Shown here: piece after piece, positions 1,325 through 12,322 of the stretch
How the letters are laid out: each line of letters begins with the position of its first letter
Numbering within the stretch: the first letter of the stretch is position 1
DNA from: a bacterium
Lineage (GTDB): Bacteria > UBP7 > UBA6624 > JBBIMK01
DNA: 12,415 nucleotides
NCBI GenBank assembly: GCA_037444445.1
Contig: JBBIMK010000033.1
Span: forward strand, 1-12,415
Direction of reading: 5' to 3'
Program-made: the position numbers and the translations under genes
The notes under the pieces: generated by a model
The model's input: only the letters and a program-made list of their open reading frames with translations
Databases searched by the model: none
What the model was told of the DNA's origin: nothing

Positions 1325-3508
1325 CTACACATCTTTTAAGAGGGTAAGGAATTTCTCCAGCACCCGGGGGTCAAAATGTTTTCCTGCCTGCTCCTGGAGA
1401 TAATTCAGGGTTTTTTCCAGGGGCCAGGCTTTTCGGTAGGGACGGTCAGAAGTGAGGGCGTCCCACACATCCACGATGGAGAAGAGGCGGGCGGGTAATG
1501 GAATTTGCTCTCCTTTCAAGCCCCGGGGATACCCAGAGCCATCCCATTTCTCGTGGTGGCAGTAAGGAATATCTAAGGCGGGTCTGAGGAAATCAATAGG
1601 CGAGAGCATTTCGTAGGCAAACACGGGGTGCTTCCGCATAATAGCCCACTCCTCTTCCGTGAGGGGTCCGGGCTTGCAAAGGATGGCATCCGGGACACCG
1701 ATTTTCCCGATGTCATGAAGGAGAGCGCCCCGGCGGATATGCACCAGGGATTCTTCGGGGACATTCATCGCACGGGCGAGGCGCAGGGTCATCTCGGTCA
1801 CCCGCTGGGTATGCTGTTCCGTTTCTCGGTCCCTCAAGTCCAGGGCTTTCACCCAGCCTTCGAGGGTGGCATCATAAGCGAGGAGGAGTTCTGTATGGGA
1901 GCGCTGGAGGTTTTCAAATAGAGTGGCGCTATCTACGGCGACAGCGGCTTGCCCTGCGAAGGTGTCCAGGAACTCGCGCCATTCCCCGGTGGGGTCCAGG
2001 GGGGCGCGGTGGAAGACTTCCAGCACGCCTTTCACTTCACCCCTGGCGATGAGAGGAAAGCCGAAATAGGTGACGAAATCCTCCGCTGGAAGCAGAGGGG
2101 AGCGGGTGAACGAGTTTTCTCGTTTGAGGTCAGGGATATGGATTGTGCGGCGTTCCAGTGCGGCTTTACCCGCATAACCCTCTCCCAGGCGCAGGTGAGT
2201 TCGCTGGAGAGCCCGGGTGCGGAATCCTTTCCCTGCGGCGAACTCCAGAGTGAGCGTTTGTGGATTGAAAAGCAGGATGTCAACAGCATGAACCCCCAGT
2301 TGCCTCATCAATTGCTCCAGTAGCACATTCAGGGTAAGGCGGAGGTCCAGGCTTCCGGAAATAGCCAGGTCAATGGTTCGGAGGGCAGACATGCGTTCTT
2401 GATGGCTCTTCAGCGAAGTCACCATTTGATTGAAGGTTTTTGCCAGTGTTCCAACTTCATCCTCCTTTGTGGCAGGGATGGGCTCGGGCCAGGAGCCTTT
2501 GCGAAGGATTTCAGCGGCCTGGGTGACCGCACTGATAGGATTCGCGATTCCCCGAGCCACAAATAATCCAACGACTCCGGATAAGAGAAGGGAGAGGAAG
2601 CCAATAATCAATAGCATCCCGTGAACCTGCTGATAGGGCGCCAGTTCTTCTTTCAAAGATTTTTGACTTAAATACCACGCGTTCTTTGGGCCGATGTAAG
2701 AAGAGAGTAAAGAGGCATGAGAAAGGTATTTTTCCTTGCCTGAAGAAATGGTGAACGCAGTGACGGTGTGTGGATTCTGCGGGGAAGAGATTTGTTGATA
2801 CAGCGTTTGAATTTCTTTCCGGGTTGCGGGTTCCTGAAATTGGCGAAGATGGCTTTCTGGCAATGAAGAGGCGACCACTCTGTCCTCTACGAAGAAGGTG
2901 ATGTCGGTATGAGTGGCTTCTTTGAGATAATTTGCCAGGCTATCGTTCAGTAGAGCGCCCGTGAGCAATACGCCCCAGACTTTCTTCTCGGCGGCGCCCG
3001 GAACTGCAGTGAGTAAAGGGACAGCGGCAAATTGAAAGAGCTGGCCATCCAGGAGGGCAATCTCAACCGAGTCTTCCCCTTTCAACGCCTTCAGGATGGC
3101 AGGCTCGCTGAGGAGGGTTCCTCGTTCTCCGGGTTTGTCAGTTCTAACCAGTAGCCTTCCATTTTCATCCGTGAGCCAGATGAAGTCCACTTTCATCGTC
3201 TGGAGGTAAGATTTTGCGGTATCCAGGATGGTGGGGTAATCTGCTGCGACGAGCACTGTTCTTAAGATAGGAAGTTCAGTCACCAGCCGTGCCTGGGAAA
3301 GTAATTCCTGGCTCCGGGCATTCAGGAAATGCCAGAAAAAAGAGTCAGCCTCCTGCATTTTTTTATTCACGTTCTGGATGGTGTTTTTCTGAAGCACGAA
3401 GTGGTTTGCGAGGAAGACGGAGGTAGAGAAGCCTAAAATCACGAGAATCAAAGAGGTGAGGATTTTCGCCCTTAAGCTGAAACCGAGTCGGATTCGCGGT
3501 ATTTTCAT
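1325..3508 (-). CDS. Membrane-bound HD-GYP domain c-di-GMP phosphodiesterase with periplasmic Cache-like sensor, HAMP and GAF domains
   Basis: The C-terminus carries the HD-GYP signatures LLHDIGKIGVPDAIL and HHEKWDGSGYPRGL. Two TM segments (ILTSLILVILGF and LLIIGFLSLLLSGVVGLFVA) bracket a loop of about 260 aa. A HAMP-like linker (ANPISAVTQAAE...EVGTLAKTFNQM) and a GAF-like region follow. I place the start at ATG 3506-3508 (M43 of the track ORF), 7 nt after the upstream stop. An alternative ATG at 3559 would overlap the OMP gene. Confidence 0.92.
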   Translation of the reverse strand: MKIPRIRLGFSLRAKILTSLILVILGFSTSVFLANHFVLQKNTIQNVNKKMQEADSFFWHFLNARSQELLSQARLVTELPILRTVLVAADYPTILDTAKSYLQTMKVDFIWLTDENGRLLVRTDKPGERGTLLSEPAILKALKGEDSVEIALLDGQLFQFAAVPLLTAVPGAAEKKVWGVLLTGALLNDSLANYLKEATHTDITFFVEDRVVASSLPESHLRQFQEPATRKEIQTLYQQISSPQNPHTVTAFTISSGKEKYLSHASLLSSYIGPKNAWYLSQKSLKEELAPYQQVHGMLLIIGFLSLLLSGVVGLFVARGIANPISAVTQAAEILRKGSWPEPIPATKEDEVGTLAKTFNQMVTSLKSHQERMSALRTIDLAISGSLDLRLTLNVLLEQLMRQLGVHAVDILLFNPQTLTLEFAAGKGFRTRALQRTHLRLGEGYAGKAALERRTIHIPDLKRENSFTRSPLLPAEDFVTYFGFPLIARGEVKGVLEVFHRAPLDPTGEWREFLDTFAGQAAVAVDSATLFENLQRSHTELLLAYDATLEGWVKALDLRDRETEQHTQRVTEMTLRLARAMNVPEESLVHIRRGALLHDIGKIGVPDAILCKPGPLTEEEWAIMRKHPVFAYEMLSPIDFLRPALDIPYCHHEKWDGSGYPRGLKGEQIPLPARLFSIVDVWDALTSDRPYRKAWPLEKTLNYLQEQAGKHFDPRVLEKFLTLLKDV

Positions 3509-3515
3509 AAGATGT

Positions 3516-4472
3516 CTAAAAGGGCTGGATATAAAGGAGTTGGGCTTGAAGGTTTTCATCCTTCTCGCCGCCGATGATTTTTCTGGAAGCGTTGATGGAA
3601 AGAGTAATGAAGGGGCGAAGGAAATACTTTGCACCCACGATGACCTGCCGGATATTATCCGGGGGAGAGGCGTTGGTTCGGCGGAGGGTTTCTATTCTTA
3701 GAATACCTGTGAGTTTTGGGAGAGTGGGGAAGTGATAGAAGGTATCCTGATAAAAACCCCAGTAATCATGGGATTCTCCGTTTTGTATTTCGCCCAGAAT
3801 CCATTCACCCCGGAGAATGAGATACGGGAAAGAAATCCGCCAATCCAGGCCTTCTGCCCTGGATTTCTTTCTCACTGGAATAGCATTGATTGGGGTGAGG
3901 TAACTTCCGCGGTAGAAATTGACGCCGAGGATGAGAGGCTCCTGATAGGTTTGCAGGTGAAGAGAAAAATCTTTGAGACCATTTTCCAGGCCGTTCAGGC
4001 CGTCTGATTGAGAGTTCATCAGAGCGGATTCATAACTCAGTTTGGGGTTACCTCCGAGAAGGAGGATTCCCGCGTCTTCTTTCGCCAGCTGGAATGGCAT
4101 CCGGGCTTCGCTCTTGACCAGGGGCTTTTGAAGGATACCCATATAGTCCTGCTCCGAGCGCTGGTAGATGCCGAAAGGAAGGCGAAACTTTCCCGCTTTC
4201 ACTGTTCCCAGGGGGGTTTCCAGGGATAGAAAAGCCTCTTCTATAAAGAATTCTTCCTCTTCCACATTGAGATTGGTAAAAAATCGGAATATCTTCCTGT
4301 TCTGATAATCCAGCCTCAATTGGAGTTCCGGGCTTTCAATGGAGGCTTTTTTACTCCGTTGCTGTTCCCCAATCAGTTCCACCTGTGCTTCGCCCCGAAT
4401 GTCTGCTGAGGCAGGGGTGAAAAACAGAAGAGCCTGCAGGAGGCAGAAGGGAAGGAGGCATAGGAACTTCAA
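3516..4472 (-). CDS. Outer-membrane beta-barrel (porin-like) protein
   Basis: N-terminal signal peptide MKFLCLLPFCLLQALLFFTPASA. Amphipathic beta-strand pattern with alternating residues, ending in the OMP-type C-terminal motif LLYIQPF. The TTG start at 4470-4472 overlaps the TGA stop of the upstream gene (TTGA). Confidence 0.7.
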   Translation of the reverse strand: MKFLCLLPFCLLQALLFFTPASADIRGEAQVELIGEQQRSKKASIESPELQLRLDYQNRKIFRFFTNLNVEEEEFFIEEAFLSLETPLGTVKAGKFRLPFGIYQRSEQDYMGILQKPLVKSEARMPFQLAKEDAGILLLGGNPKLSYESALMNSQSDGLNGLENGLKDFSLHLQTYQEPLILGVNFYRGSYLTPINAIPVRKKSRAEGLDWRISFPYLILRGEWILGEIQNGESHDYWGFYQDTFYHFPTLPKLTGILRIETLRRTNASPPDNIRQVIVGAKYFLRPFITLSINASRKIIGGEKDENLQAQLLYIQPF

Positions 4473-5116
4473 TGGGTGGAATCTTTCTCCTTTTGTTCAG
4501 CGCCCCGTTTCAGGGTCAGGGTCAATTCCACATTCCCCCCGGGGGAAACATTCACCTTCCTCTCCAGTTCCGGGTAAAGTTCGTGCCACACCTTGAGGGT
4601 ATATTCTCCAGCGGGAATATCCTTGATGGAGAAAGTTCCTCGGGTATCGGTGGTGGAAAAGTAAGGGTTTTCAAGTACCAGGATATAGGCGTTCATATGA
4701 GGGTGGATATTACAGAAGATAGCGTGAACCCCGGGTTTATCAAATTTCACGGTTTTCTTGGCACCTTTAGGGAACAGTCCCAGGTCAAACTTTTTTCCGT
4801 GGAAAAGGGAAAAAACATTGTGCAAAACATCGTCGTTATTGGGAAAATCCACTTTGCTTCCCAGCAGAACTGGGAGAACATGAGGAATGAAATTTTTATT
4901 TCTCTGCTCCATAGATAAGTTTTTTGAGGGAGACTGTTTCACTTTTGGACCGTCTATATAAACTACGGAATCGGGGAGGGCTTTTTTCTTCTCGTCCTGG
5001 ACGATTCCGTGTATTTCTCCATTCTCCGAAGCGGACACCATAAGGATAGCCAACCCGTAGAAAAAAGCGAGCACACAAAAAGTGAAATGCCACCTTCTCC
5101 TACTTTGATGAACCAT
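4469..5116 (-). CDS. Periplasmic or membrane-anchored cupredoxin (amicyanin-like type-1 copper site) with a C-terminal carboxypeptidase-regulatory-like beta-sandwich domain
   Basis: N-terminal hydrophobic anchor/signal (FTFCVLAFFYGLAILMVSA). A complete T1Cu ligand set is present: H99 in VLHNVF, and C135-x2-H138-x2-M141 in FCNIHPHM. Compare amicyanin PHNV and CTPHPFM. The C-terminal GTFSIKDIPAGEYTLKVWHE...VELTL is typical of CarboxypepD_reg-like domains. Confidence 0.8.
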   Translation of the reverse strand: MVHQSRRRWHFTFCVLAFFYGLAILMVSASENGEIHGIVQDEKKKALPDSVVYIDGPKVKQSPSKNLSMEQRNKNFIPHVLPVLLGSKVDFPNNDDVLHNVFSLFHGKKFDLGLFPKGAKKTVKFDKPGVHAIFCNIHPHMNAYILVLENPYFSTTDTRGTFSIKDIPAGEYTLKVWHELYPELERKVNVSPGGNVELTLTLKRGAEQKEKDSTH

Positions 5117-5125
5117 CGCAATTTC

Positions 5126-5134
5126 ATTATACCA
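5126..5134 (-). promoter_or_regulatory. Candidate extended -10 promoter element (TGGTATAAT on the minus strand) for the cupredoxin operon
   Basis: The minus strand reads GGATGGTATAATGAAATTGCGATGG. Only 9 nt separate TATAAT from the ATG at 5116, and no Shine-Dalgarno lies between them. The -35 region is poor (TTCCAT). Confidence 0.3.
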
Positions 5135-5220
5135 TCCGGGGCAGAAGTATGGAATAGGGGAAGGGTGCTGGTTATTTCAACGGCAGGAAAAGAACTCTGT
5201 GTATTGGAAGGGGTGGGAGT

Positions 5221-5574
5221 TCAAGGGTTCTGGCGTCTGATTCTGGAAAGGAGGAAGTTTTTCAGGGCGACAGCGCTGTTGTGCTGGATGTCTCTGGCGC
5301 TGAAAAGAAGGGTGAGATTTCCCTTGTGTTCTGCCTCTACGAGAGGTATCCAGGCGGAGGGGTTGTTGTTCAATTCGGCGAAATAACGGCGCTGGAATTC
5401 CTTCCACTTCGCCGGGTCGTGGCTGAACCAGGTGCGCAATTGGGGGCTGGGCGCTACCTCCTTCAGCCAGGCATCCACCTTAACGGATTCTTTTTTCATT
5501 CCTCGGGGCCAGAGGCGTTCCACCAGATAGCGCAGGCCATCGTCAGGCTCCGGTGGGTCGTAGATGCGCTTCAC
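5221..5574 (-). CDS. DUF488 (YeaO-like) family protein
   Basis: KRIYDPPEPDDGLRYLVERLWPRGMKKE...WLKEVAPSPQLRTWFSHDPAKWKEFQRRYFAEL matches the DUF488/YeaO pattern. The track start is GTG 5574. The in-frame upstream codons read LIRV, and a GGAGG lies 7 nt before CTG 5583, so the true start may be non-canonical (see findings). Confidence 0.9.
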   Translation of the reverse strand: MKRIYDPPEPDDGLRYLVERLWPRGMKKESVKVDAWLKEVAPSPQLRTWFSHDPAKWKEFQRRYFAELNNNPSAWIPLVEAEHKGNLTLLFSARDIQHNSAVALKNFLLSRIRRQNP

Positions 5575-5596
5575 CCGAATCAGGACAGCACCTCCG

Positions 5597-6031
5597 TCAA
5601 GAAGGGCTTACCGCACTGGGTGGACGGATTCTACCAAAAATCAGATAGAAAAAGTAGAGAAGACTGAGGATTTGAAGTGTCATACCGATGAGAGCGAGGG
5701 TATAGGGCAATGAGCCACCTGCCCAGAAAGGCTCGGCTACGCTTCGGAGTAGGGTACCAGCATTGAACAGCCCATAGAGAATCATCCCTTCTCGCTCGGT
5801 GGTGTAGTGTGGAGGCTCTTTTTTCCTCGGGAACATCCAGAGAGCCACTCCCATAATGATTTGAATGACTGCTCCGAAAAGTATCAGGTGAACATGAACC
5901 GTTCGCCAGGATGTCGCCCACGCAAAAGCGGGGTAGCGATACCCTAAAAACATGAAAAGCCCGAGAATAATTCCTGTCAGTAGGTAAACGAGAGAAGTTT
6001 TCAGCATCCACCGCTGGTAGTTATATCTCAT
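5597..6031 (-). CDS. Small 4-TM integral membrane protein, function unknown
   Basis: 144-aa ORF with an ATG start, AAGGAA 9 nt upstream and four long hydrophobic helices. It has a conserved-looking His helix (VHVHLILFGAVIQIIMGVALWMFPR). Its stop lies 22 nt upstream of the DUF488 gene. Confidence 0.72.
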   Translation of the reverse strand: MRYNYQRWMLKTSLVYLLTGIILGLFMFLGYRYPAFAWATSWRTVHVHLILFGAVIQIIMGVALWMFPRKKEPPHYTTEREGMILYGLFNAGTLLRSVAEPFWAGGSLPYTLALIGMTLQILSLLYFFYLIFGRIRPPSAVSPS

Positions 6032-8414: not shown

Positions 8415-8597
8415 TCACATTGGCGAAATCAAGGTCAGGGTAATAAGACACAATTTTTGGGCACAGCATAAGTCATAGACCTGCTGGTCGGAAATCCCTT
8501 GAAGTCCCTGCTCCTGGAAGGTATGTGCTTCATAGCCTGCGTCCCGAAGGATTTTCACGATTCGTATCCCAAAATTCTCGTCCAGCTTGAACTTCAT
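8415..8597 (-). CDS. DUF5615 family PIN-like toxin, apparently frameshifted and 3'-truncated (probable pseudogene)
   Basis: MKFKLDENFGIRIVKILRDAGYEAHTFQEQGLQGISDQQVYDLC...LITL matches the N-terminal half of DUF5615/COG4634 proteins. The frame ends after 60 aa. A 1-nt shift at about 8436 restores the family motif DLDFANVIRFP, but that frame stops 14 codons later. The ATG overlaps the antitoxin stop (ATGA). Confidence 0.6.
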   Translation of the reverse strand: MKFKLDENFGIRIVKILRDAGYEAHTFQEQGLQGISDQQVYDLCCAQKLCLITLTLISPM

Positions 8598-8836
8598 CCG
8601 ACTGACTTCATCGGAATCTCCACATACCGCTCCCGGGACATTTCAGCGCCATACGCGATGCAAGCCCGAATGTCCTCATCGGTAAGGTGCGGATACTCCT
8701 GAAGAATCTCGCCCACGCTCATACCGCCGGCAAGCAGGTCCAGGACCAGGGACATCCAGATGCGGGTGCCACGAACGCACGGCTTGCCGAAGCAAACAGC
8801 TGGATCAATGCTAATGCGTGCCTGCCAGTCTTCCAT
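8594..8836 (-). CDS. DUF433 (COG2442) domain antitoxin-like protein
   Basis: MEDWQARISIDPAVCFGKPCVRGTRIWMSLVLDLLAGGMSVGEILQEYPHLTDEDIRACIAYGAE is a typical full-length DUF433 protein of 80 aa. GGAGG/GAAAGG lies upstream of ATG 8834-8836. The 118 extra N-terminal codons of the track ORF run through repeat/hairpin DNA and are not coding. Confidence 0.85.
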   Translation of the reverse strand: MEDWQARISIDPAVCFGKPCVRGTRIWMSLVLDLLAGGMSVGEILQEYPHLTDEDIRACIAYGAEMSRERYVEIPMKSVG

Positions 8837-9040
8837 CCTTTCCGCGCCTCCACACACGATTCTAACCCCTTTGTTCGGTAAAGAGAAGCAAGTTTGAGAA
8901 ACCTGCACCCTGCCACGCCGACGACCCCATTTTCGTCTACATCCCTTCCAGATTTCCATTATTACACACTTTCGGGGTCCCGAAGTTCGTAGTGGCACCG
9001 CTGAAATATAGCGGGGCTTTAAATCGCCCGATAAGGAGTT

Positions 9041-9100
9041 GTCATGCTGAACGCAGTGAAGCATCTCAATTGGGATTCTTCGCCTTCGGCTCAGAATGAC
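9041..9100. repeat. Imperfect palindromic REP/MITE-like element
   Basis: The arms are GTCATGCTGAACGCAGTGAAGCATCTC and TCTTCGCCTTCGGCTCAGAATGAC. The reverse complement of the second arm is GTCATTCTGAGCCGAAGGCGAAGA. They pair imperfectly around a loop of about 9 nt. Translated, the element gives the VILS.../...LHCVQHD-type peptides that recur in spurious small ORFs over such repeats. Confidence 0.5.
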
Positions 9101-9104
9101 ACTC

Positions 9105-9137
9105 GGGAGTCCCGTTTCAAAACAAGCGGGACTTCCC
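9105..9137. other. Strong stem-loop (10-13 bp stem, one bulge) adjoining the palindromic element
   Basis: GGGAGTCCCGTTT-caaaac-AAGCGGGACTTCCC. There is no flanking U-run on either strand, so it is not a canonical intrinsic terminator. Confidence 0.5.
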
Positions 9138-9180
9138 TGCGCTCCACCGGTTGAAATCCATAGTTGAGGTATAATACAAA

Positions 9181-10488
9181 GTGAAGGCAATGACCAAAAA
9201 GGGGGAAATCATTTCAAGGAGAATAGAAAGGGAGGGAAGGAAGTCCGTCAGCCAGCCCGAGCAGACTTACCCCTCCGCAAAGCCAGGGGTTCACACCGGC
9301 TGGAAGCATCCGGGCGGCAAGCTATTAGCGTGTGGAGCCGAATCCCTCACGGATGCAGAACTCCTCGCTATCCTGCTGGGAACTGGGATGAAGGGCAAGC
9401 CAGCCGAGACACTTGCCAGTGAAATTCTCTCCAGATACGGCACACTGGAGCAAGCGATTCTTCATCTGTCGTCAGCGGTGGGAAGATTTAAGGGAATCGG
9501 GAAAGTCAAGAGCGTTCGTCTTGCGGCCATAAAAGAACTTCTTCAGAGGCTTTTCCCGGATGTTTACTTGAGAGAATCCCTGGGCACTCCATCTCCGCCC
9601 CTTTTTGAGGTAGCGCCATTAAAACCTCCACCTTCCACAGAAACAGCAATACAAGGGGATAAAAAATTATTTTTCCAGGCAAACCATATAACGATTATCC
9701 ACGACGATTTTCTAACAACGGATGCTATTAAAGAGAATTCGGTTGACTTGATTGTCACTTCACCTCCCTATAATGTGGACATCAAATATAACTCCTACGA
9801 TGATAAGATGCCTTATGAGATTTATCTGGAGTTCACCCAGAAATGGATTGAGAGAGCCTATCAATTGGCTAAAGAAGATGGTCGCTTTTGCCTCAATATT
9901 CCTCTGGATAAAAATAAGGGTGGACAACAAAGTGTTTTTGCTGACATTGTGTCCATTGCCAAGAAAATGGGCTGGAAATACCACTCTGCTATCGTCTGGA
10001 ATGAGCAGAATATATCTCGGCGAACTGCGTGGGGCTCCTGGCTTAGCGCCACTGCACCTTTTGTGATTGCGCCTGTAGAAATGATTGTAATTTTATACAA
10101 GAAAAAATGGAGAAAAACCAGCGGGTCCAGGATGTCGGATATTTCTAAAAATGAGTTTATGGATTGGACAAACGGCGTTTGGTCTTTCTCGGGTGAAAGT
10201 AAAAAGAAAGTGGGGCATCCCGCTCCATTTCCTGTGGAGCTCCCGAAGAGGTGTATCAAATTGTTCACTTTCGTGGGGGATACGGTGCTTGACCCATTTT
10301 TAGGTAGCGGCTCTACCCTGATTGCTTGTGCCTTAACTCACAGAGCAGGAATAGGCGTTGAAATTGATAAAAATTATTGCGAGATTGCCAAACAAAGGCT
10401 GGTCAAGGAAACCCGTATTACTCAACTTACATCTCCGCATGCTGAGTTAAGAGATTCCACCGCGGGAAAGCATGAAAAAATCATATAA
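9181..10488 (+). CDS. Chimeric protein: RadC-family N-terminal helix-hairpin-helix region (no JAB/MPN domain) fused to a beta-class N4-cytosine/N6-adenine DNA methyltransferase
   Basis: aa 44-125 (GGKLLACGAESLTDAELLAILLGTGMKGKPAETLASEILSRYGTLEQAIL...FKGIGKVKSVRLAAIKELLQRL) align with the RadC/YicR N-terminus ([30 protein letters not shown]...). aa 165-410 carry methyltransferase motif IV (DLIVTSPPY, 9760-9771), then HPAPFPVELP, then motif I (VLDPFLGSGST, about 10297). Order IV before I defines the beta class. The start is GTG 9181 (GAGG 11 nt upstream) or ATG 9190. Confidence 0.9.
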   Translation: MKAMTKKGEIISRRIEREGRKSVSQPEQTYPSAKPGVHTGWKHPGGKLLACGAESLTDAELLAILLGTGMKGKPAETLASEILSRYGTLEQAILHLSSAVGRFKGIGKVKSVRLAAIKELLQRLFPDVYLRESLGTPSPPLFEVAPLKPPPSTETAIQGDKKLFFQANHITIIHDDFLTTDAIKENSVDLIVTSPPYNVDIKYNSYDDKMPYEIYLEFTQKWIERAYQLAKEDGRFCLNIPLDKNKGGQQSVFADIVSIAKKMGWKYHSAIVWNEQNISRRTAWGSWLSATAPFVIAPVEMIVILYKKKWRKTSGSRMSDISKNEFMDWTNGVWSFSGESKKKVGHPAPFPVELPKRCIKLFTFVGDTVLDPFLGSGSTLIACALTHRAGIGVEIDKNYCEIAKQRLVKETRITQLTSPHAELRDSTAGKHEKII

Positions 10489-11068
10489 GACTGTAGAGGG
10501 AAGGCAAAGTTTCGTCGCAAAAAGTGGAAAGGAGTTAGAGAAAAGGGTTACTGAATATCTGAGATTGGAACTTGGAAAACATGGAATACAAATCATCCAC
10601 GGAGATGAAATTAAAAAAAACAGAACAAAATACACAGGGCTTTACGAATATCTTTCTATTCCAACCAAAGAATCCTATACGAAGCAGGTATGGGGAGATA
10701 TAGATTTGATTGCGGTGGATAATCAGAAGAAGCCGATAGCCATTATCAGTTGTAAAACAAGTTTCCATGGTAGATTCACCGAAACACTTTTCTATAGTGT
10801 GATATTCAGGTTACTTACTCGCATTAAATTTGTCCTGGTCACTTCAGATGAAGGCAGGGGGCAAAAAGGGAAGTGGCAATCAGAATTGGGTAGTGAAAAG
10901 AAACCCACGAAAGATAGAATACTGGCAACTACTTTCCTGGATGGTCTTTACACGACGAATGATGGAACAAAACTGGGTGGAATCGTGAAATTTATCACGG
11001 ATTTACCGAAAGATATCCTGCATTGGAAGGAAGACATTATAAAAATCCATTCTTCACAGTTACCGTAA
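10472..11068 (+). CDS. Putative Type II restriction endonuclease (PD-(D/E)xK-like), cognate of the upstream methyltransferase
   Basis: 198-aa ORF overlapping the methyltransferase stop by 17 nt, with the same low GC. The candidate catalytic block is GDIDLIAV-x10-IISCKTSFHGRFTE (D76/D78 ... S93-x-K95 ... E104). This arrangement is reminiscent of the D...SxK...E variant seen in Cfr10I/NgoMIV-type enzymes. No specific family recognised by eye. Confidence 0.6.
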   Translation: MKKSYKTVEGRQSFVAKSGKELEKRVTEYLRLELGKHGIQIIHGDEIKKNRTKYTGLYEYLSIPTKESYTKQVWGDIDLIAVDNQKKPIAIISCKTSFHGRFTETLFYSVIFRLLTRIKFVLVTSDEGRGQKGKWQSELGSEKKPTKDRILATTFLDGLYTTNDGTKLGGIVKFITDLPKDILHWKEDIIKIHSSQLP

Positions 11069-11218
11069 ACAAGATATGCTGAATATGGCATCCATACTCG
11101 TATACCAGGACCCAAGGGGGGACTTATGCCGGGCTGGGGAGTGGTGAGTGAACTTTTGGAAGAAAAACTTGAGAGGATAGAAATACCTGATGAGGACGAG
11201 GGTAGGAGGTGAAAAAAA

Positions 11219-11446
11219 ATGGCAAAATACCAATGCCAAAACTGTGGCTATAAGGGTTCTGAACTGGTCTTCCAATTGACTGATTATACTTACTGCGTAG
11301 CGACAAATGACGATGAACCAGAATATAGGGCAACAATTCCGGATTGGGTGATACATAAAGCGGTTGGGGAGGCGGAGATCGAGCAACCAGTGGGCTGTCC
11401 TAAATGTCATGCCTGGGGTGCAACAAATTTTGAGATGATTGAGTAG
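11219..11446 (+). CDS. Small acidic zinc-ribbon protein, function unknown
   Basis: 75 aa with C6-x2-C9 and C60-x2-C63. There are 12 Asp/Glu against 5 Lys/Arg. A strong SD (GGTAGGAGGTGA) lies 7 nt before the ATG. Low GC, like the R-M genes. Confidence 0.55.
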   Translation: MAKYQCQNCGYKGSELVFQLTDYTYCVATNDDEPEYRATIPDWVIHKAVGEAEIEQPVGCPKCHAWGATNFEMIE

Positions 11447-11596
11447 CCTCACAGCAAGGGGTCAGACACCTGTTTGTGGTATATCGTATAATAATGCTGT
11501 GGAATTGGGAGATATAAGAACTGAAGTGGGCTATTTAGATAGGGTGGGAGGGGTCTGGTTGCTGGAAACTGGCATCTGGGAGGGGGGAATTGAGGT

Positions 11597-12322
11597 ATGA
11601 AGGGGAAGAAGGAAGAGGATTTCGGGCTGGATGTAGTGGCTTTCGGTGCCCATCCGGATGATGTGGAAATTGGAGCGGGCGCCTTTTTATTAAAGATGAA
11701 GCGGCTGGGTTATTCCACGGGCGTTGTGCATTTAACGGATGGGGATATGGGGAAGGGTGACCCGAAGAAGAGGCGAGAAGAAGCCCGAGCCGCCGCGCGC
11801 CTCCTGGAGGTGGATGTGCTGGAGTTTATGAACCTGGGCGACTGCCGGCTGGAGGATAATCAGGAGAACCGGGTGAAGGTGGCGGGGATGATTCGGCGTC
11901 TTCGTCCGCGTCTGGTTCTGGCTCCTTACTTTGGCACCGAGCCCGGGCGAGGGCTGGGGCACGCGGACCACATTGCAGGAGGCTATCTGGTTACCCACGC
12001 GGCCAACTTCGCGCATTTAGAAAAATTCCCTGCTTTTGGAAAAGCCCACGCCATCCAGCGCCTGATGTATTACCAGTTCAGCCCGTTCATCAAGCCCTCT
12101 ATCGTGGTGCCCGTGGATGAGGAATTTCCCATTTCCATAGAAGCGCTGAAACAGCATGAAACCCAGTTCGGGAAGATAGAGCACGAGTGGTTTCGTGAGT
12201 TGATAGAGGCGGGGGCAAAGCGTTTGGGCTGGATGGTGGGCGCCCGCTTCGCCCTGGGCTTCCTCCTGACCGCCCCCCTGCGTGTGGATGACCCCCTCAA
12301 ACTCCTTTGCCCCGAAGAGTAG
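11597..12322 (+). CDS. PIG-L/LmbE family N-acetylglucosaminyl deacetylase (BshB1-like)
   Basis: VVAFGAHPDDVEIGAGAFLLK...VVHLTDGDMG...LGHADH are the PIG-L family zinc-binding and catalytic motifs (AHPDD, HxDH). Host-like high GC. Confidence 0.9.
   Translation: MKGKKEEDFGLDVVAFGAHPDDVEIGAGAFLLKMKRLGYSTGVVHLTDGDMGKGDPKKRREEARAAARLLEVDVLEFMNLGDCRLEDNQENRVKVAGMIRRLRPRLVLAPYFGTEPGRGLGHADHIAGGYLVTHAANFAHLEKFPAFGKAHAIQRLMYYQFSPFIKPSIVVPVDEEFPISIEALKQHETQFGKIEHEWFRELIEAGAKRLGWMVGARFALGFLLTAPLRVDDPLKLLCPEE

Follow-up and report, generated by a model that had tools for sequence, protein, structure and literature searches.

The contig JBBIMK010000033.1 (NCBI GenBank assembly GCA_037444445.1) of a bacterium from the UBP7 lineage carries, close to the end of the 12,415-nucleotide (nt) stretch that was analyzed here (hereafter, the window), a low-GC islet in which a DNA methyltransferase domain (M), a gene for a restriction endonuclease (R), and a gene for a small zinc-ribbon protein (Zn) follow one another on the plus strand. 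This gene set raises the question of what kind of system it represents, where it came from, and what could be the role of its two unfamiliar parts, the zinc ribbon encoded downstream of the nuclease and the RadC-N-type helix-hairpin-helix (HhH) module that precedes the methyltransferase. We consider it likely that the region from ∼9163 to 11460 is a single horizontally acquired Type II restriction-modification (R-M) operon with two accessory modules. Its R-M core proved ordinary; the unexpected results were the two rules governing the gene neighborhoods of the accessory modules. The broadest proposal, namely, that Zn is a portable partner of nucleases and, at the same time, the short RadC-N HhH protein is a dedicated subunit of methyltransferases and Type IIG enzymes, is a tentative one, with doubt the heavier side of the scale.

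The features of this region, in window coordinates, are the following:

9163..9180, plus strand: conserved 5′ boundary of the module; a TATAAT box (9170-9175) directly precedes the GTG start (from the onset of homology to the contigs L036 and L037 and from reading of the sequence)
9181..10488, plus strand: open reading frame (ORF) of 435 amino acids, a RadC-N-type HhH module fused in frame to a beta-class N6/N4 methyltransferase (Pfam, PADLOC)
9310..9513, plus strand: UPF0758_N (RadC N-terminal, HhH) domain, amino acids 44-111 (Pfam, 8.5e-15)
9556..9660, plus strand: linker and junction (homology to the contig L002 begins at 9621; drop in GC content)
9742..10395, plus strand: methyltransferase catalytic domain (motifs, Pfam)
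10472..11068, plus strand: R, a Type II endonuclease of 198 amino acids, PD-(D/E)XK, BsaWI/AgeI/PfoI group (Pfam, fold search)
11069..11218, plus strand: 150-nt spacer between R and Zn, including a "mini-ORF" of 28 amino acids (11126-11212) and an AGGAGG sequence (11204-11209)
11219..11446, plus strand: Zn, an acidic four-cysteine zinc-ribbon protein of 75 amino acids, isoelectric point 4.56 (ORF, two CxxC pairs)
11463..11492, plus strand: promoter-like site CAGACA-18-TATAAT, right limit of the islet (best regional consensus match, 10/12)

Composition of the islet

An earlier reading of the letters alone (hereafter, the sequence-only reading) had described positions 9600-11520 as a low-GC islet, which was confirmed by sliding-window GC content, by GC content at third codon positions (GC3), and by tetranucleotide deviation. 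In 200-nt windows, the GC content is 0.36-0.47 over 9601-11600 versus 0.51-0.62 in both flanks; it is 0.419 for 9600-11520 taken together and 0.521 for the remainder of the window. Of all 1,921-nt stretches in the window, the one that starts at 9621 has the lowest GC content; left of the islet, no stretch of this length falls below 0.474. Tetranucleotide usage departs most strongly from that of the remaining sequence at 9601, with a distance of 0.42 over a background of 0.17-0.25. GC3 is lowest in R (0.38), followed by Zn (0.43) and the M domain (0.44), versus 0.51-0.68 in the other genes of the window; it reaches 0.68 in the downstream PIG-L gene and 0.58 in the N-terminal part of the M-bearing ORF. 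The M-R-Zn set is foreign in its composition. A milder dip (GC content of 0.41-0.455) at 4600-5200 makes the islet the extreme, not the sole, low-GC stretch. This dip overlies an ORF on the minus strand (4469-5116; GC3, 0.51) that codes for a CarboxypepD_reg/PEGA-domain protein.

The restriction-modification core

The methyltransferase domain recognized in the sequence-only reading is indeed present, with intact motifs, but it is not a separate gene. Instead, it makes up the C-terminal 60% of the 435-amino-acid ORF, which could start from either GTG at 9181 or ATG at 9190. The N6_N4_Mtase domain spans amino acids 188-405 (Pfam, 4e-48; PADLOC MTase_II, 1.4e-93). The motif order, IV (TSPPYN, amino acids 193-198) and then I (DPFLGSGST, amino acids 371-379), places this enzyme in the beta class, as do SPPY at amino acids 194-197 and FxGxG at amino acids 373-377; both motifs are invariant in the alignment of homologs. 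The SPPY sequence at motif IV is a rule-of-thumb sign of N4-cytosine over N6-adenine methylation and suggests that M makes N4-methylcytosine, although databases name its homologs "adenine-specific." The nearest solved structure is 2ZIE (9.5e-29).

More than 7,900 homologs of M were found and are described here from the best 120, which are 62-98% identical to M, most of them 74-80%. They come from WOR-3, Omnitrophota, Chloroflexota, Melioribacter, Kryptonium, and other hosts. Most are stand-alone proteins of ∼265 amino acids; a few carry other N-terminal extensions, and UPF0758_N is absent from all of them. The aligned homologs open with MNxKLYFQ, where the window has GDKKLFFQ. In three of these proteins (P0099, P0108, and P0111), the extension consists of helix-turn-helix (HTH) domains of the HTH_17/MerR type (PF12728, PF00376, and PF13411) and occupies the position that is held by the HhH module in the window. 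Exact-sequence look-up of the R protein and of the M protein with either of its two alternative starts returned no record.

The ORF coordinates bear out the 17-nt overlap between the R gene and the stop of M that had been noticed in the sequence-only reading. R matches the Pfam family RE_BsaWI with 49.7 bits (cut-off, 26.2) and an E value of 4.2e-13, and some of its 46 homologs, of ∼200 amino acids, are named "BsaWI family type II restriction enzyme." Residues D76, D78, S93-C94-K95, H99-G100-R101, and E104 are invariant in the family alignment. The AlphaFold2 (AF2) model of R (pLDDT of 87) retrieved AgeI (5dwc, 5.5e-6), PfoI (6eko, 7.1e-6), and BsaWI (4zsf, 1.9e-4) in a Foldseek comparison with the PDB, with no other PDB match below an E value of 0.1; a sequence search of R against solved structures gave no meaningful match. 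The fold family of R is clear.

Enzymes of the CCGG family share a permuted active site, PD...K-X12-13-(E/D), and recognize the CCGG core through an R-(D/E)R motif (PMC5389614). Similarly to the Type IIP systems of this family (BsaWI, AgeI, PfoI, and NgoMIV), the window has separate M and R genes in one operon, with an R that matches RE_BsaWI, has a predicted fold nearest to those of AgeI, PfoI, and BsaWI, and contains acidic residues, an S-x-K, and a downstream acidic residue that resemble the permuted site. In contrast to the solved enzymes, which comprise 272-312 amino acids, R has only 198. Its K-to-E spacing is 8 instead of 12-13, as judged from the alignment, and the positions K+4 to K+6 hold the invariant H99-G100-R101 in place of R-(D/E)R, of which the last Arg alone is kept, as it partly is in AgeI. 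With H-G-R in place of R-(D/E)R, the specificity of R could not be read from its sequence. This departure counts against the proposed reading of the operon, as does the lack of avoidance of CCGG-type palindromes in the window, whose 12 kb give little power. R can be described as a small enzyme of the BsaWI fold whose recognition motif is altered and whose specificity may be new. By a first-order Markov estimate, the window over-represents CCWGG (61 versus 37.9 ± 6.2), CCNGG (106 versus 74.4 ± 8.8), and TCCNGGA (14 versus 6.0 ± 2.3).

R is found in bacteria and in many archaea. In 32 of the 33 genome loci with an R homolog (L003-L035), M adjoins it, the exception being a partial copy (L034); the two genes are arranged in tandem in close bacterial relatives and convergently in most archaea. 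R and M are therefore adjacent as a conserved gene pair, as in Type II systems, and we regard the Type II R-M assignment as very likely. R and Zn are absent from plasmid and phage collections; the nearest plasmid-borne M (63% identical, on Calditerrivibrio pCALNI01) has an HNH endonuclease as its partner. The entire M-R-Zn trio is found, in the same order as in the window, in L005, a WOR-3 genome with a GC content of ∼0.33, where it has that genome's own low GC content; the Zn of L005 is 59% identical to that of the window.

The zinc-ribbon gene and its partners

As the sequence-only reading stated, the zinc-ribbon ORF has a strong Shine-Dalgarno sequence, AGGAGG, 9 nt before its ATG. The mini-ORF in front of it, which was counted there as a part of the module, was rejected as a gene: its counterpart is found only in the 96%-identical contig L001, which makes it a lineage-specific spacer. 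The gap between R and Zn is 150 nt in the window, 4 nt in L005, and 2-42 nt in most other loci. Zn stays below the thresholds of the profile libraries (Pfam, best score of 18.8 bits; NCBIfam, 17.8 against a cut-off of 45; PADLOC, best value of 0.031), and its AF2 model (pLDDT of 85.8) has no match in Foldseek (best E values of 1.2 in PDB and 1.4 in BFVD). An HMMER search of 1.84 billion representative proteins gave 26 clusters at E ≤ 0.001, ∼20 of which are credible relatives of 63-126 amino acids. No true match was found in IMG/VR or in the phage and plasmid collections, where a motif scan of IMG/VR gave a chance match, and the idea of Zn as a phage-borne anti-restriction protein was rejected.

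Since the family is too variable for an alignment-based search, metagenomes were searched with a degenerate DNA pattern for the C-terminal P[VI]GCPxCxAWG; gene neighborhoods formed no part of the search criterion. This search yielded 68 stretches with the pattern, of which ∼60 align to Zn in tblastn, ∼55 of them over at least 60 residues. A co-oriented ORF lies upstream of Zn in 41 of the 46 loci with at least 700 nt of upstream sequence; the gap is 50 nt or less in 30 of these 41 and 2-16 nt in 25. The upstream partners include:

18 loci: protein of 327 amino acids (sub-threshold EVE match, D...ELK motif)
13 loci: winged HTH (wHTH)-HNH protein of ∼195 amino acids, after the same M family (Pfam HNH, 2e-06; PADLOC REase_II, 3.8e-07)
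3 loci: BsaWI-like R, as in the window
3 loci: HATPase protein of 629 amino acids (Pfam HATPase_c_3)
2 loci: PD-T4-2_B after a GmrSD_N protein (1.1e-59)
1 locus: R.HinP1I, after M (1.2e-78)
1 locus: protein with ResIII and RE_endonuc domains (PADLOC REase_III)
1 locus: HNH_2 nuclease, with M downstream (Pfam HNH_2)

Rare as it is, Zn lies 3′ of nucleases that belong to no fewer than seven or eight unrelated defense families. Its presence beside a PD-T4-2-type pair means that this family is not confined to methylation-linked systems; in L043 and L103, the Zn homolog follows the GmrSD_N and PD-T4-2_B pair 73 nt further on. The co-occurrence of the zinc ribbon with the M-R pair, which the sequence-only reading had proposed to look for, turned into a link with restriction genes that is far wider than this pair and is facultative with every partner family. 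In several loci, the GC3 of Zn could be compared with those of the nuclease and of the flanking host gene (listed as nuclease/Zn/host gene):

L041: 0.37/0.39/0.60
L067: 0.37/0.45/0.67
L086: 0.42/0.44/0.63 (both sides)
L096: 0.41/0.40/0.76
Window: 0.38/0.43/0.68

Zn has the same GC3 as the nuclease, far below that of the host genes, which argues that it travels with the nuclease; a low-GC islet that ends in a zinc ribbon is a recurrent pattern.

The same neighborhoods could be read in a different way. Zn might be an independent gene, or a recombination handle at the border of cassettes, so that its link to nucleases would reflect cassette exchange and not mechanism. Several observations favor this reading or count against a functional tie to the nuclease. 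Among the loci of this R family, Zn is found only in the window, L001, and L005, that is, in 1 of the 33 genome loci, and it is missing beside the M and HNH pair on pCALNI01; in a few loci (L057/L076), Zn has no nuclease neighbor at all. In the (noisy) Zn tree, some clades are united by what lies downstream (PolX or cluster c4) and include upstream nucleases of different types. Mantel tests gave no correlation between the divergence of Zn and that of its HNH partners (rho = −0.23), and only a weak one for the EVE group (rho = 0.45, p ∼ 0.03). The largest partner class, the 327-amino-acid protein, is a putative nuclease, as judged from the sub-threshold EVE match and the D...ELK motif. Finally, in L005, the Zn gene that begins 4 nt after R in M-R-Zn (3353-3595) is followed by an AbiEii/AbiEi-like pair in the opposite orientation, then by a second, partial Zn (5520-5642), and then by tgt. 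This second copy, ∼2 kb downstream, comprises only the C-terminal half of Zn and suggests recombination within or at the Zn gene, just as expected of a handle.

Other observations speak against a handle. In many independent loci, the GC3 of Zn matches that of the nuclease and lies 0.15-0.35 under those of the downstream host genes. The prevalent orientation and the short gaps, 2-16 nt in 25 loci, are those of translationally coupled operon genes. In L102 and L083, Zn sits between the nuclease and the methyltransferase, and the genes downstream of Zn are varied, with PolX in 10 loci and more than 20 other, unrelated clusters. Taking both sides together, we find the handle explanation unlikely, albeit the most serious of the competing ones. 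A direct functional role of Zn, as suggested by its gene neighborhoods, can be put forward with some hesitation, the case for it falling slightly short of balance.

In certain R-M operons, a similarly small gene encodes a C protein. C proteins are HTH regulators, usually encoded upstream of R, that act on the C-box. Like such operons, the window contains a small extra gene that could plausibly tune the nuclease upon entering a new host. In contrast to them, this gene codes for an acidic zinc ribbon, has no HTH, and is located 3′ of R, and its family is also found beside Type III, Type IV-like, and PD-T4-2 nucleases, to which the logic of C proteins does not apply.

The HhH module and its fusion to the methyltransferase

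The N-terminal part of the fusion has a host-like composition (GC content of 0.54 and GC3 of 0.58 for the HhH domain). Similarly to RadC/UPF0758 proteins, its amino acids 44-111 match UPF0758_N and, with scores far under the cut-offs, the first third of the RadC equivalog models (positions 3-88 of ∼212-218). Unlike RadC, it contains UPF0758_N alone, with no JAB/MPN domain, and does not belong to the RadC family proper. This does not result from insertion of the islet into a full-length radC gene with removal of the JAB domain, a possibility that was rejected: the best 120 of the 369 homologs of the HhH part have UPF0758_N only, with no JAB domain, and all but two of them are 91-121 amino acids long.

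Five stand-alone HhH genes located on long contigs were sampled (P0235, P0259, P0195, P0242, and P0206). In all five cases, the next gene is on the same strand, at a distance of −8 to +22 nt, and codes for an N6_Mtase/Eco57I/MmeI-type enzyme of 1,075-1,307 amino acids. In the five sampled cases, the short UPF0758_N protein is thus regularly encoded just ahead of a restriction enzyme that contains a methyltransferase, and the fusion in the window represents a Rosetta-stone case of the same association. The pairs of HhH with MmeI/Eco57I-type enzymes are found in loci L106-L113 and in the contigs of P0206; one of them (L108/L109) lies amid RAMP and Cas10/Cmr2 genes, in a type III CRISPR-Cas locus.

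In the window lineage, M is most probably produced as an HhH fusion, judging from its reading frame: the ATG of M seen in L002 (87%-identical M) is replaced by ATA (9649-9651) in both the window and L001, there is no intervening stop, and from the HhH domain to motif IV the frame offers a single canonical start, TTG at 9568, which has no Shine-Dalgarno sequence. The HhH part has its two closest relatives in the metagenome of L002, and both carry other low-GC cargo. In P0168, a 62% identical HhH is fused to the apparent N terminus of a different methyltransferase (UPF0020, 6.8e-5; alignment of motif I), which is a probable second, independent HhH-methyltransferase fusion. P0169 (57% identical) breaks off within its HhH domain, and a PD-(D/E)XK-wHTH protein is encoded next.

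Methyltransferases of the M.SsoII type possess an N-terminal extension that bears an HTH. Like these, the methylase of the window has an N-terminal DNA-binding module; its extension differs in being a RadC-N HhH that usually has a small gene of its own, ahead of one for an MmeI-type enzyme.

The fusion might also be an accident. A deletion or recombination event could have removed the stop of the HhH gene and the start of M, leaving a decaying remnant on its way to an orphan methylase or to pseudogenes, comparable to the truncated toxin beside it. The ATA codon, the poorly equipped TTG, and the lack of similar fusions among the best 120 M homologs favor this reading. So does L001, a Logan contig (positions 1-2528) that is 96% identical to 9074-11523 of the window, with all parts in equal order. 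In this contig, the fusion is interrupted by a +1 frameshift after 9706 and R by a −1 frameshift in the A8 run at 10613-10620, and a pair of compensating indels lies beside the second CxxC of the Zn gene. In addition, the ratio of nonsynonymous to synonymous substitution rates (dN/dS), which rests on small substitution counts here and below, is 0.51 for the HhH part and ∼0.5 for the linker (few substitutions), indicating relaxed constraint, and 0.40 for R in the comparison with L001. The frameshifts, through which the system may be decaying in the L001 lineage, and the relaxed HhH part weaken the case for a working operon.

Nevertheless, all three ORFs of the window are intact, with every family-invariant residue of M and R in place, and M is under strong purifying selection (dN/dS of 0.06 versus L001 and 0.08 versus L002). 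R shows a dN/dS of 0.18 versus L002, and Zn has 0.23 versus L001. An intact R argues that M is expressed, because cells with R but no functional M would die. Elsewhere, a stand-alone HhH gene directly adjoins or even overlaps the gene of its methyltransferase partner, so that a fusion is a small step, and P0168 provides its probable second instance. The L001 copy may be decaying or may carry assembly errors; the window copy looks functional. We view decay of the window copy as improbable. The case for a functional partnership between HhH and methyltransferases, which comes from gene neighborhoods, appears evenly poised.

HhH genes were not found upstream of the metagenomic Zn loci, nor was Zn found behind the MmeI-type enzymes encoded next to stand-alone HhH genes. 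The HhH module and Zn are therefore two independent accessory modules.

Edges and origin of the operon

The composition break lies within the ORF 9181-10488, at the HhH/M junction and away from any gene boundary. The left edge of the islet given in the sequence-only reading, 9600, marks a true drop of the GC content, but the module itself begins at ∼9163/9181, as M is fused to the HhH part. Homology to L036 and L037 starts at 9163-9166, and the sequences upstream do not align. The segment 9163-9180 is a probable promoter, possibly for a leaderless or short-leader transcript, although a sigma-70 consensus scan called no full site there. At the other end, the core of the promoter-like site 11463-11492 is conserved in L001.

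Related contigs contain either the same insert (L001 and L002) or have just the HhH gene in common with the window (L036 and L037). L002 aligns with the window from 9621 on, and its M-R genes show ∼84% nucleotide identity (87% for the M protein and 80% for the R protein). In L036 and L037, homology to the window is limited to the HhH gene from 9163 on, and the upstream flanks of all three are mutually non-homologous. Their HhH genes carry other low-GC cargo, a methyltransferase in L036 and a PD-(D/E)XK-wHTH protein in L037, as is typical of defense hot spots, which gives some substance to the suggestion of a hot spot in the sequence-only reading. Unlike hot spots at a single site, these loci have unrelated upstream flanks, and no empty site was found in relatives, which speaks against the acquisition scenario as well; a shared chromosomal hot spot is suggested at most.

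No family match to an integrase, transposase, or recombinase was obtained in Pfam scans of the window ORFs, nor any HTH or C-protein match on the ORFs between 9181 and 11446. The tRNA and Rfam scans of the window were likewise empty, and the terminal direct or inverted repeats around the islet are merely 11-23-nt matches at chance level. These results agree with the lack of an integrase, transposase, C protein, and terminal repeats noted in the sequence-only reading, and its concept of a compact, acquired M-R-zinc-ribbon defense module with no mobility gene, within an accessory or variable setting, is supported by gene content, by composition, and by the trio in L005. The idea that the operon is an old resident, with a low GC content intrinsic to its gene families, an islet edge that is simply a gene edge, and no recent transfer, fits the common arrangement with L001 (and of M-R with L002), which shows that this is no single-strain novelty, and the low GC3 of the Zn partner cassettes in nearly all hosts examined, but it is very improbable given the identity of M (74-80%) across distant phyla, the presence of R in both bacteria and archaea, the composition break inside an ORF, and the different low-GC cargo of the related HhH genes.

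Proposed mechanism and implications

The operon departs from known Type II layouts in having no C protein, an HhH-fused methylase, and a zinc-ribbon gene at its tail. In the proposed scheme, M, as the HhH-M fusion, would methylate host sites, probably to N4-methylcytosine, and R would cut unmethylated incoming DNA at a site shared with M. The HhH module would most likely give the methylase a sequence-independent means of DNA binding or tethering. Zn, made from the same transcript and co-translated with the nuclease, would serve as a facultative accessory subunit of restriction-type nucleases, most likely by binding the nuclease or its DNA substrate to tune cutting, perhaps in a safety or regulatory capacity. 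The cassette would probably have arrived from a low-GC donor by recombination downstream of the HhH gene.

As a portable partner, Zn may be a nuclease-binding safety catch or activator and represent a new class of R-M controllers, acting with nuclease folds that may include Type II PD-(D/E)XK, HNH, R.HinP1I, Type III Res, PD-T4-2/GmrSD, and EVE-type ones. A literature search of incomplete coverage found neither a zinc-ribbon partner of restriction enzymes nor a link between RadC-N and methyltransferases. Should these links be functional, Zn would exemplify a new kind of accessory or regulatory component for restriction systems, and the N-terminal domain of RadC would obtain its first functional context and a testable role, with the window fusion as the Rosetta-stone evidence.

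Flanking genes

The islet is bordered by the following features:

8415-8836, minus strand: DUF433/DUF5615 toxin-antitoxin pair with a 4-nt overlap (Pfam; DUF433, 7.9e-26)
8995-9137: three hairpins in the interval from the DUF433 gene to the HhH-M ORF (fold prediction)
11597-12322: PIG-L/LmbE gene (Pfam PIG-L, 1.1e-24; GC3, 0.68)

Both the decaying toxin-antitoxin pair and the adjoining hairpins of the repetitive extragenic palindromic (REP) kind had been pointed out in the sequence-only reading and were recovered here. The antitoxin domain is intact, while the DUF5615 toxin ORF ends after 60 amino acids and spans positions 1-53 of the 110-position profile. The 198-amino-acid ORF at 8594-9190 is probably over-extended, with the likely start of the DUF433 gene near 8836. 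The hairpins, which include a long imperfect one at 9036-9104 and GGGAGTCCCG...CGGGACTTCCC at 9105-9137, fold as DNA with −30.2 kcal/mol (z = −2.5) for the region 8995-9137 and look like a miniature inverted-repeat transposable element (MITE)/REP-type repeat. Low-GC defense cargo beside a toxin-antitoxin remnant and hairpins is also what is seen in defense islands with no mobility genes.

The remaining genes of the window are ordinary chromosomal ones, such as those for a dCache-HAMP-GAF-HD signaling protein, a peroxiredoxin, and the PIG-L deacetylase. An antisense ORF of 130 amino acids with no family match (11060-11452, minus strand), which covers the R-Zn spacer and the whole Zn gene, is interpreted as a shadow of the conserved gene on the plus strand.

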